Position numbers and translations under genes: made by a program. From Alkalilimnicola ehrlichii MLHE-1 (GTDB taxonomy: Bacteria > Pseudomonadota > Gammaproteobacteria > Nitrococcales > Halorhodospiraceae), in contig NC_008340.1 in the NCBI RefSeq assembly GCF_000014785.1, positions 3,000,001 to 3,032,000 of the forward strand: a stretch of 32,000 nt of DNA, given 5' to 3'. Positions 4,417 through 30,528 of the stretch are shown here, in pieces. The number at the start of each line of letters is the position of its first letter. Position 1 is the first letter of the stretch. The notes beneath the pieces are model-generated. The model did not search any database, was not told the DNA's origin, and saw only the letters and a list, made by a program, of their open reading frames with translations.

Positions 4417-5670
4417 ATGAAGTGGTGGCGGGTTCACCAGCCCGCCGCCGACCCGAACAGGCCGCCGCCCGATCTGATGAAGCCATGCCCGAGCACCACA
4501 CGACAGCTGATCCGCCTGCGTGACCGCGTGCTCGCGCGGTCCCGGCAGATCATGCTCGAGCTCAGCGGCGGCGACCCGGAGGGCATACTCTCACCCCGGC
4601 ATCACGGCCTGATCCTGCGCCGACAGCGGGCCCGCCTGTTGATCTCCCGGGTCCGGATCGTTGCCTTTGTCTTCGCCATCCTCACCCCGCTCTGGATCGC
4701 CGTGGACCTCGCCGTCTTCCCCCCGGAGATCGCCCTGCCGCTGGGCATCGCCCGGCTGCTCACCAGCACTGCCTTCTTCAGCCTGGCGTTGATGTATGCG
4801 GACTCGGATCGGGTCTGGCATGCCTGGGTCGCATTGGGGTTGATGTTCCTGATCCCCACGCTGTTTTTCCTCTACAGCCACTCACTGCTGGCGGGCACGG
4901 ACATGGAGGGGGTGTCCGCGGCGATGGCGGCCGGCTATGCCTACCTCCCCTTCGTGATGCTCTCGGGGCTGGCGGTCTTCCCGCTGACGGCGCTGGAGGC
5001 GGCGGTCTTCGCCCTCCCCGTGGTCGCCGCCCAGGCACTCACCGGTCTGCTGGGCCAGGACCTGATGGGGTGGAGCAACCAGCTGGGTGCCACCTGGCTG
5101 CTGGTGCTGATCGCGGTGGTGGCGGCGCTGGCCGGTATGAGCCAGCTGCACTTCATGGCCGAGCTGGTGCGCCGCTCCTCCCATGACGCCCTCACCGGCT
5201 GTCTCAACCGCGCCAGCGGCGAGGAGCTGGTGCGGCTGCACTTCAGCATGGCGCGGCGGACCGGTGAGCCGGTCACCGTTGTGTTCATGGACCTGGACCG
5301 GTTCAAGTCGATCAACGACCGCTTCGGCCACGATATCGGCGATGTGGTGCTCTACCAGGCCGCAAACGCCATCCGCGAGCAGCTTCGGGATACCGACACG
5401 TTGATCCGCTGGGGCGGAGAGGAGTTCGTCCTGCTGCTGCCGGGCGCCACGCGGAGCGATGCCTGTCGGGCCCTGGCCCGTCTGCAGTCCAACGGGCTGG
5501 GCCTGCGCCCCGACGGCAGGCCACTCACCGCCAGCTTCGGACTGGCCGACACCCTGACCCCCGGGGTCAGCGACGTCGACAGCCTGGTGGAGACGGCGGA
5601 TCGGCACATGTACGCGGCCAAGCGGGCCGGCGGCGACCGCATCGTGGCCGGCCTGGAGCCCACACCCTGA
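4417..5670 (+). CDS. Membrane-bound diguanylate cyclase (multi-TM N-terminus + GGDEF)
   Basis: This is the 3' part of track ORF 3874..5670; the upstream part is antisense to the previous gene. ATG 4417 opens MKWWRV..., followed by several hydrophobic helices. It then reads HDALTGCLNRASGEE..FMDLDRFKSINDRFGHDIGD..RDTDTLIRWGGEEFVLLLP (GGEEF plus RxxD). The start is uncertain; an alternative Met lies 20 codons downstream. Confidence 0.85.
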   Translation: MKWWRVHQPAADPNRPPPDLMKPCPSTTRQLIRLRDRVLARSRQIMLELSGGDPEGILSPRHHGLILRRQRARLLISRVRIVAFVFAILTPLWIAVDLAVFPPEIALPLGIARLLTSTAFFSLALMYADSDRVWHAWVALGLMFLIPTLFFLYSHSLLAGTDMEGVSAAMAAGYAYLPFVMLSGLAVFPLTALEAAVFALPVVAAQALTGLLGQDLMGWSNQLGATWLLVLIAVVAALAGMSQLHFMAELVRRSSHDALTGCLNRASGEELVRLHFSMARRTGEPVTVVFMDLDRFKSINDRFGHDIGDVVLYQAANAIREQLRDTDTLIRWGGEEFVLLLPGATRSDACRALARLQSNGLGLRPDGRPLTASFGLADTLTPGVSDVDSLVETADRHMYAAKRAGGDRIVAGLEPTP

Positions 5671-16438: not shown

Positions 16439-16657
16439 GCCTGTGGCGGTGGGGTCCTGGCGGGGCCGTGCCTGGGGTGGACCCGACTTTGGCGCACCGA
16501 GCAACGCAGGGAAAAATCGGGAAAAGCGCGTGCCTGTTCGAGCGAAGCGAGTTCACGCGCGCCGATTTTTCCCGAGTAGCGCAGGGCACCCCGAAGGGGT
16601 GCGCCATCGGAGGGTCCACCCCAGGCACGGCCCCGCCAGGACCCCACCGCCACAGGC
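16439..16657. repeat. Nested-hairpin intergenic element, copy 1 (219 bp)
   Basis: The outer inverted repeat is a perfect 46/46: 16439-16484 pairs with 16612-16657. Inner helices are 16490-16498/16598-16606 (9 bp), 16509-16520/16562-16573 (12 bp) and 16526-16532/16554-16560 (7 bp). The apical loop is 21 nt (16533-16553). A homologous copy lies at 27112-27333. Confidence 0.9.
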
Positions 16658-27111: not shown

Positions 27112-27333
27112 TGAGTGGGCGGGTTGGCGGGTTCCGGGCGGGGGTGTTGCCGCTGGGGCGACTTATGCGCACCGAGCAACGCAGCAAAAGAGCGGAAACA
27201 AGGCGCGCCTGTCCGAGCGAAGCGAGTTCGCGCCGCCGCTCTTTTGCGAGTAGCGCAGGGGACCCCGAAGGGGTGCGCATTTGGAGCCCCAGCGGCAACA
27301 CCCCCGCCCGGAACCCGCCAACCCGCCCACTCA
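27112..27333. repeat. Nested-hairpin intergenic element, copy 2 (222 bp)
   Basis: The outer inverted repeat is a perfect 48/48: 27112-27159 pairs with 27286-27333. Inner helices are 27165-27173/27272-27280 (9 bp), 27184-27195/27236-27247 (12 bp) and 27202-27207/27229-27234 (6 bp). The apical loop is 21 nt (27208-27228). It has the same orientation and architecture as copy 1. Confidence 0.9.
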
Positions 27334-28005: not shown

Positions 28006-30528
28006 ATGAGCCACCAGCTACCCGTAGAGCGCATCGTCCAGTCGAGCATACTCCACTGTGGCCCCGAGACCCCGCTCTGCCAGGCCGCGGAACGCATGGC
28101 CGAGCGTCAGTGCAGCTCCATTCTGGTGATGGAGGCGGACCGCGCGGTGGGCATCTGGACCGAACGGGACGCCCTGGCGGTGGATTTCTCCGACCCCTCC
28201 GCCATTCGCAGACCCATCCGCGAGGCCATGAGCAGCCCGGTTGCCTGTATCCCCGGGGAGACGGAGCTTGGGGAGGTGGCGATGCGCTTTCGCGCCGAAC
28301 GGTGCCGCCACTTCCTGGTGATCGACCGGGGCGGCCAGCCCCTCGGGCTTGTCTCGCAAACGGATGTGGCCCTGAACCAGGGCATGGAACCCTACCTGAG
28401 ACTGCGCGAGGTGGGCGCCGCGATGCGCACTGCGCCTCTGGTGTTGGCCGCCGACACACGATTGTCGCAGGCGGCGCGGCGCATGCGCGAATCAGAGCGG
28501 GATGCGGCCGTGATCCGCTTTGCTGACACCGACGACCTGGGCATTGTCACCGAGCGGGACCTGGTCCGCTGCATCGCCCGCTACCCCGGGGACACGCCCA
28601 TCGGTCATCTGGCCAGCCGGCCACTGCTCACCGTGGCGGCGAACGATATGCTCATCCGCGCCCGTGACATGCTGATGGACCACCAGGTCCGGCACCTCGC
28701 CGTTCTCGACGACCGGGGCCAGGTGGTGGGTCTGCTCGGCTTCCAGGACCTGCTGGCCGGTGCCGAGCAGAGCTATCTGAAGGATCTGCGTCGCGCACTG
28801 GAGCAGCGCGACAAAGCATTGGCCCAGTCGCGCAAGCACCTGCAACTGGCCGAGCGGGTCATCGACTCCTCACTGGAGGGGATCGTCATCACCGACGCCC
28901 ACGCCCGGATCGAGTTCGTGAACCCGGCCTTCACCCACCTGACCGGTTACAGCCTGGAAGAGGTGGCCGGCCGCACACCGGCAGTGCTCTCCTCCGGCCG
29001 ACACCCGCCTTCGTTCTACCGGGAGATGTGGCAGGCCCTGCAGGAGCAGGGCTACTGGCGCGGCGAGATCTGGAACCGGCGCAAATCCGGGGCCCTCTAC
29101 CTGGAACTGCTCACCATCACCGCTATCACCAATGACGATGGTGACACCACCCATTACGCCGGGCTGTTCACCGACATCACCCACATCCGGGAGAACGAGC
29201 GGCAGATCCGCCAACTGGCCTACTACGACCCCCTCACCCGGCTGCCCAACCGCCGGCTTCTGGACGACCGGCTGTCACTGGCGATCAAGCATGCCCACCG
29301 CCACCGACAGCGCCTGGCGGTAATGTTCATCGATCTGGACCACTTCAAACAGGTGAATGACACCCTGGGCCACGCCGTTGGCGACGAGCTGCTGCTGAGG
29401 GTCTCGGAGCGGCTGCGCGAGCACCTGCGCGAGGACGACACCCTCGCCCGCCTGGGTGGAGACGAATTCCTTGCCCTGCTGCCGGACCTGCAGGAAGTGG
29501 ATGAGGCCATCCGCGTCACCCAACGCCTGATTGAGGCAATCAGTCAGCCCTACACCATCGGCGACCACGACTTCCGGGTGGGTTGCAGCATTGGGTTAAG
29601 CCTCTATCCGGACGACGGGGAGAGCCCGGATGCGCTGATCCGTAACGCCGACGGGGCCATGTACCGCTCCAAGACAGAGGGTCGCAACACCTACCGGCTC
29701 TATGCGCCGGAGATGGACACCCGCGCCAAGAACCAGTTGGCGCTGGAGACGGCGTTACGCGACACCGCCGAGACCGGCGAGGGCCTTTCGATCCATTATC
29801 AACCGATTTTCGACTGGCGGACTGGCGCCCTGCATTCCGCCGAGGCGCTGCTGCGCTGGCACCACCCGACCCGGGGCGCGGTCGCACCGGGCGAGTTCAT
29901 CCCCCTGGCCGAGCGCTCCGGACTGATCATCCCGTTGGGCCAGGCGGTGATGCGCATGGTCTGCACCCAGCTCAAGCGCTGGCAGGCGGCCGGCCTACGG
30001 CCGGTGCCCGTGGCCATCAACCTCTCTGCCAAGCAGTTCTGGCAGGACGAACTGCCCGGCTTCATCCGGAAGATGCTGCAGCGTTGCGATTTAAACCCGG
30101 GGCTGATGGGTTTTGAGCTGACCGAGAGCACGCTAATGCACGATATCGAGCGTGGGCTCGACACCCTGGCGGCATTACGGGGGATGGGCTGCAGCGTGGC
30201 CATCGACGACTTTGGTACCGGCTATTCCTCGCTGACCTACCTGCAGCGGTTGCCGGTGACCACCCTGAAGATCGACCGTAGCTTCGTTAGCGACCTGGGC
30301 ACGTGCCGGAAGGGAGGCTGTGCCATCGTGGCGGCGGTCACCGGGCTGGCACGCGAACTGGAATTGCAGGTGGTGGCCGAGGGTGTGGAGACCGAGGCCC
30401 AGCTCCGCGCCCTGGACCGCTACCAGGTGGCATTGGTTCAAGGGTTCAAGACCGGCCGCCCGGTCCCAGCCGATGCCTTCAGCGAGGCCTACCTGCGAGC
30501 GATGACAAGCGGCCGGGACGGGGATTGA
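28006..30528 (+). CDS. CBS x4 - PAS - GGDEF - EAL c-di-GMP signalling protein
   Basis: 840 aa. There are two CBS pairs (aa ~1-255) and a PAS domain (IVITDAHARIEFVNPAFTHLTGYS..). The GGDEF domain reads REDDTLARLGGDEFLALLP with an RxxD I-site. The EAL domain has EALLRW, DDFGTGYSSL, KIDRSF and EGVETE. No obvious SD precedes ATG 28006. Confidence 0.92.
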   Translation: MSHQLPVERIVQSSILHCGPETPLCQAAERMAERQCSSILVMEADRAVGIWTERDALAVDFSDPSAIRRPIREAMSSPVACIPGETELGEVAMRFRAERCRHFLVIDRGGQPLGLVSQTDVALNQGMEPYLRLREVGAAMRTAPLVLAADTRLSQAARRMRESERDAAVIRFADTDDLGIVTERDLVRCIARYPGDTPIGHLASRPLLTVAANDMLIRARDMLMDHQVRHLAVLDDRGQVVGLLGFQDLLAGAEQSYLKDLRRALEQRDKALAQSRKHLQLAERVIDSSLEGIVITDAHARIEFVNPAFTHLTGYSLEEVAGRTPAVLSSGRHPPSFYREMWQALQEQGYWRGEIWNRRKSGALYLELLTITAITNDDGDTTHYAGLFTDITHIRENERQIRQLAYYDPLTRLPNRRLLDDRLSLAIKHAHRHRQRLAVMFIDLDHFKQVNDTLGHAVGDELLLRVSERLREHLREDDTLARLGGDEFLALLPDLQEVDEAIRVTQRLIEAISQPYTIGDHDFRVGCSIGLSLYPDDGESPDALIRNADGAMYRSKTEGRNTYRLYAPEMDTRAKNQLALETALRDTAETGEGLSIHYQPIFDWRTGALHSAEALLRWHHPTRGAVAPGEFIPLAERSGLIIPLGQAVMRMVCTQLKRWQAAGLRPVPVAINLSAKQFWQDELPGFIRKMLQRCDLNPGLMGFELTESTLMHDIERGLDTLAALRGMGCSVAIDDFGTGYSSLTYLQRLPVTTLKIDRSFVSDLGTCRKGGCAIVAAVTGLARELELQVVAEGVETEAQLRALDRYQVALVQGFKTGRPVPADAFSEAYLRAMTSGRDGD

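Follow-up and report, generated by a model that had tools for sequence, protein, structure and literature searches.

A bacterial family of dispersed, self-folding non-coding elements with a covarying core and, in Alkalilimnicola ehrlichii, a locus-specific palindromic stem

Location and fold of the two copies

The DNA analysed here, referred to as the window, is a stretch of 32,000 nucleotides from the complete genome of Alkalilimnicola ehrlichii MLHE-1, a cultured strain, and it contains two copies of one element, both on the + strand. Copy 1 (219 nt; 16439–16657) is situated between radC (- strand) and aspS (+ strand), upstream of the latter and on its strand with a spacing of 129 nt. Copy 2 (222 nt; 27112–27333) lies between argH and a CBS gene and, judged from folding and sequence, has a rod-like fold with a three-way junction, an architecture shared by copy 1. 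The first-pass annotation had placed the start of copy 2 24 nt past the argH stop (27087) and its end 54 nt from the point at which the convergent CBS gene stops (27388), and we recovered both boundaries.

Both copies are predicted to fold into rods of about 220 nt with energies of -181.6 and -182.7 kcal/mol, compared with around -103 for shuffled sequences (z = -15.7 and -16.9; 0 of 200 shuffles equally good), and they score 128 and 134 bits with the covariance model of the family (E ~1e-34). The outermost helix, P1, is formed by a G-rich 5' arm of 48 nt (27112–27159) and a C-rich 3' arm of the same length (27286–27333); rechecking showed it to be fully paired in each copy, as had been claimed (48/48 in copy 2 and 46/46 in copy 1), with a locus-specific sequence that is not common to other copies. 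Inside P1, the conserved 5' side of J1/2, GACTT (27160–27164), stands opposite TTGGA (27281–27285) and is followed by P2, whose 5' arm consists of ATGCGCA plus CC (27165–27173) and whose 3' arm is TGCGCAT (27274–27280). The additional CC covaries in the family with positions 27258–27259, located one A beyond the R block described below. P3 is built from GCAAAAGAGCGG (27184–27195) and its partner at 27236–27247, P4 from GGCGCG (27202–27207) and 27229–27234, and the rod ends in an apical module (27208–27228) composed of CCTGTCCGAG, a C-GAA-G mini-hairpin (27218–27222) and CGAGTT. The third arm of the junction is P5, a CCCC-GAA-GGGG side hairpin (27263–27273) that is 99.8% paired in the family.

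It had been proposed from the letters alone that the helices of the two copies differ and stay paired while the segments between them are kept, and this was borne out on re-examination: P2 differs by two double substitutions and P3 by four, with 12/12 positions paired in each version of the latter, P4 reads GGCGCG/CGCGCC in copy 2 and GCGCGTG/CACGCGC in copy 1, and GACTT, GAGCAACGCA, the apical segment, GAGTAGCGCAGGGSACCCCGAAGG and TYGGA are conserved between the copies. What did not stand is the unpaired status of some of these conserved segments, as the two GAGNANCGC blocks pair with one another. The L block GAGCAACGC (27174–27182) is the antiparallel partner of the R block GAGTAGCGC (27248–27256) in a symmetric helix with the order G-C, A.G, G-C, N-N', A.A, N-N', C-G, G.A, C-G, and 876 of the 886 cells at its Watson-Crick positions are paired in the family alignment. 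A reading of the two blocks as a target duplication was rejected because they covary as complements, not as copies. Likewise, the 21-nt apical "loop" is conserved but not wholly single-stranded, given the mini-hairpin inside it, the stem of which is longer and covarying in other copies and is capped by a GNA triloop; a K-turn reading of this module was discarded since the consensus spacing does not fit. GNA triloops closed by C-G, which are classic ultra-stable DNA mini-hairpins, occur three times per full unit. The conserved core of about 125 nt consists of P2, P5 with its GNA loop, the symmetric L:R helix with its non-canonical pairs, P3, P4 and the apical module.

Family members and selection on the core

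More than 150 further copies were found in Variovorax, Limnohabitans, Hydrogenophaga, Silvimonas, Halopseudomonas, Sedimenticola, Ectothiorhodospiraceae, Desulfocapsa and Nitrospirales. The genome scan gave at least 120 loci, and the covariance model 159 matches in 100 sources plus 43 in 26 further sources; the consensus was unchanged in copies detected solely through the model and not through the search pattern. In the metagenome scan, a regular-expression screen recognised a core in only 7 of 110 matches to the 18-mer. There are many copies per genome, and they are found at unrelated loci, for instance next to mutS/fdxA, cytochrome c/engB and the sox and liv operons; some occupy conserved spots inside operons (soxB-soxD in two genomes). 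The unrelated contexts of the two window copies had been taken to indicate a dispersed element instead of a gene-specific leader, and the unrelated loci of the copies elsewhere agree with this.

The family seems to have escaped previous description. At the gathering threshold of Rfam 15 neither the window nor the element at 18 related loci gave a match, and in E-value mode copy 2 matched only plant and animal miRNA-precursor models (57.9 bits against a threshold of 137), no more than a generic long hairpin would give. A loose two-motif pattern gave 24 matches in viral contigs, all of them unrelated cGAAg mini-hairpins, while the phage collection gave none and the plasmids a single weak, unannotated match on a V. 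paradoxus chromid. The element is not described in the literature that we searched on its loop sequence, repeats of Variovorax and Comamonadaceae, MITE and REP elements, ncRNA, bacterial triple helices and Alkalilimnicola. The window copies are members of a large, uncatalogued, non-coding and non-autonomous family of dispersed self-folding elements. A HARP/Rnl3 pair has been reported in A. ehrlichii, and the 178 known bacterial HARP instances occur in far fewer taxa than those carrying the element.

Covariation was tested on 150 aligned copies against shuffles and against partners slid out of register. Changes on both sides were observed in 43 of 46 pairs, 84.7% of the cells were paired compared with 58.7% in shuffles, and the covariation score was 0.582, against 0.155 in shuffles and 0.085–0.107 with slid partners; none of 500 shuffles matched the observed value on any of five measures. 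RNAalifold independently gives P2, L:R, P3 and P5 together with two extra covarying pairs. Across the more than 150 copies, stem changes keep pairing and the loops are conserved well beyond the first two copies. Conservation was also evident when the argH locus was compared with its orthologue in a sister taxon (ArgH 96% identical): four-fold degenerate sites are only 71.7% identical and GGGGCGACTTATGCGCACCGAGCAACGCAG is identical at 30/30 positions, with the other conserved segments differing at few positions.

The mismatches that do occur are strongly asymmetric. G.U exceeds A.C by 96 to 11 in P2 and P3 and by 302 to 27 in the long outer stems, and one pair on top of P4 is mostly G.U (51 G.U, 36 G-C and 27 A-U). 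This excess indicates that the fold is selected on one strand, and the same asymmetry disfavours a protein-bound cruciform in double-stranded DNA, one of the identities suggested earlier. The core fold is selected in single-stranded form and in one polarity only, corresponding to the + strand of the window for both copies. The earlier proposal of a selected RNA or ssDNA structure is therefore upheld by the loops that are kept, the stems that are compensated and the strand-specific wobble across the family.

Outer stem, unit pairs and neighbouring genes

P1 behaves differently from the core. In the Alkalilimnicola/Alkalispirillum lineage it is a perfect inverted repeat of 36–48 bp that is specific for each locus. 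A comparison of the window with locus L149 reveals a symmetric 3-nt indel and substitutions in both arms, and at L253 a core near-identical to that of L149 is enclosed by an unrelated, yet perfect, P1. Neither G.U pairs nor mismatches are present in the 130 bp of P1 in the window copies and L149, an outcome not expected from RNA-level compensation alone. At the radC-aspS locus in the isolate genome of Alkalispirillum mobile, moreover, the core is reverse-complemented relative to copy 1 between colinear flanks, and the same inversion is found in an independent metagenome contig. Each locus has a single orientation in two A. ehrlichii strains and in three samples of the L149 lineage, and no recombinase gene was found near the inverted core or the window copies. 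The locus specificity, the symmetric indels and the flipping of the core point to a DNA-level process that would copy one arm of P1 from the other and keep the two identical.

The perfection of the outer stem had been read as a sign of a selected structure; for these reasons it is poor evidence of compensation at the RNA level in P1, and the case for the core is unaffected. Conversely, a functionless palindrome or a recent fold-back duplication, the latter raised as an alternative at the same time, with pairing as a by-product and loops that are alike through youth, comes close for P1 only, where the arms are perfect and kept so at the DNA level and where one strain has a fresh, uncompensated G-to-A change in one arm. 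For the core it is refuted: the loops persist, with covarying stems, from Gammaproteobacteria to Nitrospirales, their conservation in sister taxa far exceeds that of four-fold degenerate sites, and the wobble bias is strand-specific. As an account of the whole element it is hardly credible, and it is valid only for how P1 stays perfect.

We found no indications of transcription signals belonging to the element. Promoter and terminator scans of the window copies and of Desulfocapsa-type loci gave nothing above the shuffle background, candidate promoters noticed by eye (TTGACN-N17-TTTACT) failed the promoter scan, and no U-tract follows the hairpins of the window copies. The last point also bears on a gene-specific role in cis, as a terminator or attenuator of argH or a leader of aspS. 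Such a role would suit the position of copy 2 shortly after argH on the shared strand, between convergent genes otherwise devoid of terminator-like sites, as well as that of copy 1 upstream of aspS on its strand. However, the core adjoins unrelated genes elsewhere, it is absent 3' of argH in relatives with 78–79% ArgH identity, and at the aspS locus of A. mobile it is inverted although the aspS-proximal flank is conserved, and we consider this explanation quite improbable. A secondary effect of copy 2 as a terminator or stabiliser of the argH mRNA is possible.

Enzymes that could mobilise the element were sought in the surrounding genes. No transposase or reverse transcriptase (RT) is present near the window copies, clustering of the ORFs within 3.5 kb of 128 copies revealed no recurrent transposase or RT, and no transposase, Rep, integrase or RT adjoins any copy. 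One large ORF cluster in this survey was made up of spurious ORFs reading through the element. In three wide pairs of units, the ORFs between the units encode YoeB/YefM, a protein of the MerR type and unknowns, and none of them is a transposase gene. Target-site duplications were found neither at the window copies nor at Halopseudomonas dyads; in relatives with 78–81% identity, the comparison with empty sites met argH intergenic DNA that was unalignable or a different synteny around aspS.

These results weigh against a REP/BIME-type element mobilised by RAYT (TnpA_REP), which had been put forward as a candidate identity and which we now regard as very improbable. The element is indeed intergenic, palindromic and repeated, it forms inverted unit pairs elsewhere as REPINs and BIMEs do, and the window copies contain GTAG within GAGTAGCGC. 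However, a unit of 150–250 nt with at least five helices is not a hairpin of 20–40 nt, and GTAG falls on the variable N of GAGNANCGC, the motif being GAGNAN and other copies having GAGCAG, GAGAAG or GAGGAG. REPs are species-specific, whereas the loops described here are conserved across phyla, and no Y1 transposase is present in the 32-kb window or beside any of about 200 copies, with no RAYT gene in the window or within 3.5 kb of 128 copies.

Most copies elsewhere belong to divergent two-unit dyads. Among short-range pairs of units, 44 are divergent, with the 5' ends facing each other, and one is convergent, and a pair never combines two units of one subtype. A 3' tail with two U-tracts and one A-tract, which is missing from the window copies, occurs in relatives with a short P1. 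In 30 of 36 parsed tails (14+10+5+1; tails counted only if parseable), the single C of the first U-tract is in register with the G of the A-tract in the parallel, Hoogsteen sense, as a mirror of the Watson-Crick strand, and the complementary register was seen in 0 of 36. A pseudoknot-like hairpin follows these tracts. The tail of one subfamily is a G-rich mirror repeat, for which a triplex of the purine motif would be required, a structure well documented for DNA and disfavoured for RNA.

The orientation of the units shows no preference relative to the flanking genes. The upstream gene of solo units shares their strand in 30 cases and lies on the opposite one in 23, and the genes flanking paired units read into the pair in 34 cases and away from it in 29; these counts derive from a codon-usage gene caller that reproduces known annotation, two crude GC3-based callers having proved unreliable. 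Together with the flipping of the core, this implies that a module dependent on read-through would be antisense about half of the time, and a DNA-level or self-transcribed element hence fits better. Solo units lie on the C-rich strand in 57 cases against 30 (p=0.005), or 39 against 25 when counted per locus (p=0.10).

Several of these observations would suit a function as ssDNA. A non-autonomous mobile element would then use the fold as a signal resembling an end or an origin, to be recognised by an ssDNA-acting enzyme such as an HUH-type transposase or Rep, by an integrase that works on folded strands or by a primase-type 'ssi' system; in a dyad, each strand would then have a correctly folded unit at its 3' side. 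The dispersal of many copies per genome over unrelated loci, the independence from flanking genes, the lack of a detected promoter or terminator and the excess of divergent pairs of unlike subtypes, which resemble two-ended mobile DNA, are in line with this, as are the C-G-closed GNA triloops, the G-rich mirror repeats of some tails and the possible C-rich-strand bias of solo units. Moreover, G.T is the best-tolerated mismatch in DNA hairpins too, so the wobble asymmetry does not separate RNA from ssDNA. Against it stand the missing transposase, Rep, integrase or RT beside the copies and inside the three wide pairs, the missing target-site duplications, the results for phages and plasmids (no match and one weak match, respectively), the copies at the conserved soxB-soxD position, and the conserved G.U position and the pseudoknot-like element, which are more typical of RNA. 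We therefore hold an ssDNA function to be possible, if rather unlikely.

Possible function and comparison with known systems

The explanation that we favour, with moderate confidence, is a dispersed, structured RNA module, non-coding and non-autonomous, that is bounded in A. ehrlichii by an invertible DNA palindrome with arms kept identical. The functional strand is most likely RNA. Copy 2, which lacks both a promoter and a terminator, would form the 3' end of the argH transcript, and copy 1 would be transcribed from the divergent region between radC and aspS. The near-invariant unpaired and non-canonical modules may bind a conserved partner, and the long basal duplex would mark the ends of the RNA and shield them by blocking exonucleases. 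This duplex would probably also be a substrate for RNase III, which would release the core hairpin; with 46–48 perfect base pairs, it is long enough for a processing stalk of this enzyme like those around rRNA (at least 20 bp, near-perfect). In relatives with a short P1, the predicted triple-helix 3' tail and the pseudoknot may replace the basal duplex. The perfection of P1 would be kept at the DNA level by template switching or recombination between the arms, and the same arms may mediate the inversion of the core.

More tentatively, the core may represent a phylogenetically broad new class of multi-copy structured RNA, an RNP scaffold or a ribozyme, that travels between genomes with one of two interchangeable end devices. 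The first would be an encoded U.A-U/C+.G-C triple helix plus pseudoknot, and the second a long duplex that doubles as a self-correcting DNA palindrome able to invert.

Should the core be a functional RNA, it would constitute a large unrecognised family with very strong covariation that extends over Beta-, Gamma- and Deltaproteobacteria and Nitrospirales, and its near-invariant non-canonical modules imply a conserved partner. If instead it functions as ssDNA, it points to a mobilising enzyme. The family also offers a natural palindrome whose arms appear to co-evolve by templating around a flipping cargo, and a heterotypic two-unit dyad architecture shared by no known bacterial repeat. A third feature is a candidate for an end-protecting RNA triple helix in bacteria which, if true, would be of a stand-alone kind that has no bacterial listing in a 2026 review (PMC13541005).

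Some systems that depend on folded nucleic acids can be set apart from the element by their partners or boxes. Retron msr/msd units have an adjacent RT, and none is present at the window copies or near the 128 copies; nor is there a tnpA or tnpB nearby, as for IS200/IS605 PATE or omega-RNA elements, and the paired units are on opposite strands, unlike the left-end and right-end hairpins of those elements, which share a strand. Integron attC sites are recombination sites conserved in their single-strand fold and often have toxin-antitoxin cassettes close by; a toxin-antitoxin pair is also found near the element (YoeB/YefM between the two units of one pair, L036). However, it is the fold and not the sequence that is conserved in attC, whereas the loop sequence is near-invariant here; the consensus has no R''/R' boxes (RYYYAAC/GTTRRRY), and neighbouring units are opposite instead of forming arrays of the same orientation.

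Closer in habit are the small intergenic repeats. REP/BIME/REPIN elements of Enterobacteria and Pseudomonas, associated with RAYT, are likewise intergenic, repeated and hairpin-forming, often occur as inverted pairs, and may act in part through hairpins at RNA 3' ends by which the upstream mRNA is stabilised. The unit described here is 5–10 times larger and has a three-way junction, and its loops are conserved, even across phyla, while its stems vary, the reverse of what is seen in REPs. ERIC/IRU, Correia (NEMIS), RUP and BOX are non-autonomous intergenic palindromes of 100–250 bp that occur in either orientation and are co-transcribed with their neighbours; in the RNA, their hairpins are cleaved by RNase III or affect how stable the mRNA is. 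Conserved terminal inverted repeats, target duplications and confinement to a narrow taxon characterise each of them, whereas the present family is least conserved at its termini (P1), shows no target duplication and has a core that occurs in several phyla. The earlier statement that this is not an ordinary MITE is in keeping with these differences: the outer arms differ between copies, even at orthologous loci, and there are no flanking direct repeats at the window copies and Halopseudomonas dyads.

Flip-flop palindromes and invertible segments, such as parvoviral ITRs, segments between long inverted repeats and promoter invertons, also consist of an asymmetric core between perfect inverted repeats that is found in both orientations, and the radC-aspS copy is such an inverted-repeat-flanked segment. 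The inversion observed here is between species, no gene for a site-specific recombinase is adjacent and the core has no recognisable promoter. The tails of the relatives, a feature that the two window copies do not possess, resemble the RNA triple helices of ENE and MALAT1 in having two U-tracts and an A-tract with a C/G interruption in mirror register. Such U.A-U/C+.G-C triplexes protect the 3' ends of eukaryotic, viral and transposable-element RNAs, and the bacterial examples cited in the 2026 review are triplexes of riboswitches and group II introns only (PMC13541005). Compared with ENE and MALAT1, the connectivity of the predicted triplex is entirely local, running from U1 over a short linker to U2, a loop and the A-tract.

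Two window copies of a dispersed element

Copy 2 spans 222 nt on the forward strand (window 27112-27333, +), starting 24 nt past the argH stop and ending 54 nt before the stop of a convergent CBS-domain gene, and copy 1 lies on the same strand at window 16439-16657, between radC (-) and aspS (+). A repeat finder returned the long inverted repeats I1 and I2 and the shared blocks D3 and D11 in the window, and each copy folds as a single rod (-181.6 and -182.7 kcal/mol; z = -15.7 and -16.9), with 0/200 shuffles folding as well as either. The stem counts of the first-pass annotation were reproduced: the outer stem P1 pairs 48/48 and 46/46, P2 and P3 carry two and four double substitutions, P4 differs between the copies with pairing kept in both, and the loop blocks are identical at 5/5, 10/10, 20/21, 23/24 and 4/5 positions. 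The surrounding genes are housekeeping (ftsYEX, rpoH, radC, aspS, hemCDXY, argH and c-di-GMP enzymes). AspS shows 100% identity to its counterpart in Alkalilimnicola ehrlichii MLHE-1. Genes for transposases, reverse transcriptases or recombinases are absent from the window, and a scan beside the two copies detected neither a sigma-70-like promoter nor an intrinsic terminator. Another direct repeat of the window, D6 (70% identity, 5374-5443 / 29416-29485), corresponds to the conserved core of the GGDEF domain in two paralogous genes for diguanylate cyclases.

Labels beginning with L denote loci or contigs from outside the window. A second strain (L001) is 99.85% identical to the window over 8 kb compared without gaps and has one uncompensated G-to-A change in a copy 1 arm. 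In L004:2046-2300 (Logan SRR9436229), argH and the left half of copy 2 are fused at the apical loop to the right half of a third copy, whose P3 and P1 differ; the genes beyond it (DUF6763, endonuclease V) are unrelated. Hence the genome has at least three copies. This contig reflects either chimeric assembly across the conserved core or genuine rearrangement between copies, which means that either assemblers or cells recombine there. Contigs L002 and L003 end within a P1 arm.

The element belongs to a very large family. A scan of one genome per species with a pattern of the three loop blocks gave at least 120 loci, and among the matches listed are Variovorax (many copies per genome), Limnohabitans, Hydrogenophaga, Silvimonas, Janthinobacterium, Halopseudomonas/P. 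neustonica, Sedimenticola, Thiohalomonadaceae, Halorhodospira, Thiohalospira, Cellvibrionaceae, Desulfocapsa and Nitrospirales. A further search used a covariance model of 69 representatives, which matched 159 times in 100 sources and 43 times in 26 further sources. The copies adjoin mutually unrelated genes (mutS/fdxA; cytochrome c/engB; the soxB-soxD gap; upstream of liv-type ABC genes), which bears out the earlier reading of a dispersed element. Rfam searches of the window and of 18 related loci gave no family matching the element, phage and plasmid collections hold essentially no copies, and a search of the published literature found no description of it.

A core fold maintained by selection on one strand

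Covariation across further copies, set beforehand as a test of the structure, was borne out, as the stems vary with compensation. In a 150-sequence alignment, which was fitted to the covariance model and hence is biased towards structure, 84.7% of cells are paired against 58.7% in shuffles, 43/46 pairs are changed on both sides, and the covariation score is 0.582 against 0.155 in shuffles and about 0.1 with slid partners; 0/500 shuffles reach any observed measure. RNAalifold on a plain MAFFT alignment recovers the same P2, P3 and P5 (a side hairpin, CCCC-GAA-GGGG in copy 2), and the consensus is unchanged in copies found by the covariance model alone, which are free of search-pattern bias.

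The segments first described as unpaired are indeed conserved, but part of them is not single-stranded. The 5' GAGNANCGC block pairs with the 3' GAGNANCGC block in the order G-C, A.G, G-C, N4-N6', A.A, N6-N4', C-G, G.A, C-G, where the Watson-Crick positions are paired in 876/886 cells and all four pair types occur at N4/N6'. According to RNAalifold, two bases 5' of the left block also covary with two bases 3' of the right block plus one A, so that P2, P5 and this helix make a three-way junction. Similarly, the apical loop keeps its conserved sequence but is not wholly open: it consists of UGUYUGAG, a mini-hairpin and CGAGUU, in that order. Most copies have C-GAA-G as the mini-hairpin, and others have CC-GCA-GG, CCC-GCA-GGG, GGC-GCA-GCC or CGATC-GGA-GATCG; since the stem varies with pairing kept, this is a genuine helix with a GNA triloop at its tip. 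Arrays of short cGAAg hairpins (CCCCCGAAGGGGGG, GAGCGAAGCGAGG) alternating with ACTAGATGTAGTAT-like spacers occur in viral contigs L005, L009, L012, L017, L018 and L025; these are unrelated to the element and show how common C-GAA-G mini-hairpins are as building blocks. Across phyla, the unpaired and non-canonical core modules are under strong purifying selection.

Wobble pairs reveal which strand is selected. P2 and P3 together hold 96 G.U against 11 A.C cells, in the Variovorax and Ectothiorhodospiraceae type the long outer stems have 302 G.U against 27 A.C single mismatches, and for one pair at the apical end of P4 the plurality state is G.U. Such asymmetry would be absent from a site in double-stranded DNA or from a symmetric cruciform, and the protein-bound cruciform proposed in the first-pass annotation is therefore disfavoured. 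The element is dispersed, non-coding and non-autonomous, and its core fold is maintained by one-strand selection; the asymmetry fits RNA and also fits a folded DNA strand.

The outer stem and the 3' tail

In the sister taxon L149 (ArgH 96% identical) the element occupies the same site after argH, where it is absent in relatives with 78-79% ArgH identity. One contig at 78% ArgH identity (L152:5400-5700) carries a different palindromic repeat in this spacer, whose arms, GGTGGGTTACGCTTCGCTAACCCACCCTACATTGG / CCAATGTAGGGTGGGTAGAGCGCAGCGTAACCCATC, are separated by about 190 nt; this suggests that repeats land at the spot recurrently. The window and L149 share 71.7% identity at four-fold degenerate sites, the 30-nt stretch GGGGCGACTTATGCGCACCGAGCAACGCAG is identical at 30/30 positions, and the other conserved segments show few differences, one making an A.G mismatch in P2. 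P3 and P4 have been replaced, with the L149 P3 resembling that of copy 1, and P1 has undergone substitutions and indels, including the symmetric change TGAGTG/CACTCA versus TGGATTGTG/CACAATCCA, with pairing still 48/48 and 36/36. A metagenome copy (L253) has a core near-identical to that of L149 and an unrelated, perfect P1 of 34 bp. These comparisons indicate that P1 is locus-specific and the core exchangeable.

The perfection of the outer arms, earlier counted among the marks of a selected RNA or single-stranded DNA structure, is confirmed (130 bp of P1 in three copies, with zero G.U pairs and zero mismatches), but given the locus-specific P1, the symmetric changes and the lack of G.U it is best explained if one arm is templated on the other, rather than by compensation in RNA. 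Furthermore, the radC-aspS copy of Alkalispirillum mobile (L264:1160-1370; AspS 95% identical) has its whole core reverse-complemented between colinear flanks, as does an independent soda-lake contig (L160), implying that the P1 arms allow the core to flip. The argH copy of apparently the same sister lineage (L149, a different assembly; ArgH 96%, AspS 95%) keeps the window orientation. The outer duplex of the Alkalilimnicola lineage is thus a DNA palindrome specific to each locus, with arms that co-evolve and content that can invert.

Variovorax and Ectothiorhodospiraceae, including the window copies, have a P1 of 30-85 bp and no tail. In many other taxa P1 is just a few pairs and a tail of about 80 nt follows the core, in the order CCUUUUCUUU; a hairpin, e.g. 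GGUUAC-UUUCUUUU-GGCGAAGC-AAAAGAAA-GUAAC; and a pseudoknot-like UCGGCC-GCCGGG-CCGA-AA-CCCGG. At L047:5926-6010, L074, L120, L038 and about 30 other short-P1 loci we find U-tract 1, a linker of 4-6 nt, U-tract 2, the loop GGCGAAGC and the A-tract. In 30/36 parsed tails the single C of the first U-tract has the register of the A-tract G, read 5' to 3', and mirrors the Watson-Crick U-tract (14 x (3,4)/(4,3)/(3,4); 10 x (4,3)/(3,4)/(4,3); 5 x (3,3) throughout; 1 x (4,2)/(2,4)/(4,2)); the remaining six have one tract off by one base, and in 0/36 does the first U-tract show the complementary register in place of the mirror one. The interruption flips between (4,3) and (3,4) in the three strands together, even among copies of one genome. 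A parallel Hoogsteen strand (U.A-U with one C+.G-C) requires just such a mirror register, which an alternative Watson-Crick pairing would not produce, and the tail appears built for a predicted intramolecular triple helix.

Halopseudomonas-type units have a G-rich tail (L046:3400-3630(-), L085:5740-5830, L142, L146; left units of L102/L109/L127/L103), with a run such as AGGGGG 5' of the hairpin GGGGGCAT/ATGCCCCC. It is also a mirror repeat, e.g. GAGGGGGGG versus GGGGGGAG, and would fit a purine-motif (G.G-C) triplex, which is better known for DNA than for RNA. Each Halopseudomonas-type dyad combines one G-type and one U-type tail.

Paired units, the selected strand and known systems

Outside the window, units mostly occur in pairs with their 5' ends facing and model matches 28-185 nt apart; 44 pairs are divergent and one is convergent (L142:1668-2293). 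The two members always differ in N4/N6 subtype, e.g. GAGGAGCGCAG/GAGCACCGCAG with GAGCAGCGCAG/GAGCAGCGCAG, as in the divergent dyads L117:4006-4439, L038:2907-3229, L125, L053 and about 40 more. Three wide dyads, 0.65-2.9 kb apart (L036:3955-6904, L064:2978-3635 and L040:6495-7260), enclose small genes, namely those of the toxin-antitoxin pair YoeB/YefM, of a protein with weak NlpC/P60 resemblance and of unknown proteins 170-172 aa long, with no transposase among them; in each, a sense-oriented unit lies 3' of one enclosed gene.

Orientation was counted with a codon-usage gene caller that reproduces the known window annotation. Solo units show no preference relative to the upstream gene (30 same strand, 23 opposite) or the downstream gene (33 same, 45 opposite), and flanking genes enter and leave pairs about equally (34 versus 29). 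By GC3 skew, solo units more often have the C-rich strand as their sense strand (57 versus 30, p=0.005; L029-L148 and the window), unexplained by the local coding strand (45 versus 42), but at one unit per locus the bias weakens (39 versus 25, p=0.10) and is taken as a lead only.

Dyad polarity and the independence from host gene orientation favour the main rival reading, a selected DNA strand, in which each unit would be one end, in folded form, of a mobile element with two ends, or else a signal of the priming or origin-like kind, as do the lack of promoters, the GNA/C-G mini-hairpins and the G-rich mirror-repeat tail of one subfamily. However, no enzyme is associated with the units, target duplications are absent, phages and plasmids are essentially devoid of copies, and positions between the genes of an operon are kept across genomes; we consider this reading rather unlikely. 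We lean towards a selected RNA strand, read by neighbouring transcription, which would form a partner-binding rod with duplex-protected ends. Copy 2 would be read as the argH 3' end, its RNA would fold as a rod whose conserved modules may bind a conserved partner, and the long duplex, a plausible RNase III substrate, would define and shield the RNA ends; in other taxa the predicted triple helix and pseudoknot tail would replace it. Three other readings are disfavoured, each contradicted by tests in this analysis: membership in REP/RAYT, a leader or terminator specific to one gene, and a fold-back without function. HARP, a protein-only RNase P homologue encoded by A. ehrlichii, Halorhodospira and Thioalkalivibrio, shows no pre-tRNA cleavage in vitro and co-occurs with the circularising RNA ligase Rnl3 (PMC12153264); nothing in this analysis ties it to the element, and its taxon range differs from that of the element.

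That the core represents a categorically new RNA class has a real, though clearly less than even, chance. The element works in the manner of known structured repeats between genes (REP, ERIC and Correia) but lacks the defining features of each, and it likewise lacks those of attC sites, retrons and IS200/IS605 derivatives. Its further features, found in none of these systems, are loop sequences shared across phyla on freely varying stems, a symmetric helix with non-canonical pairs, heterotypic dyads, a predicted triple helix and an invertible, self-correcting basal palindrome.
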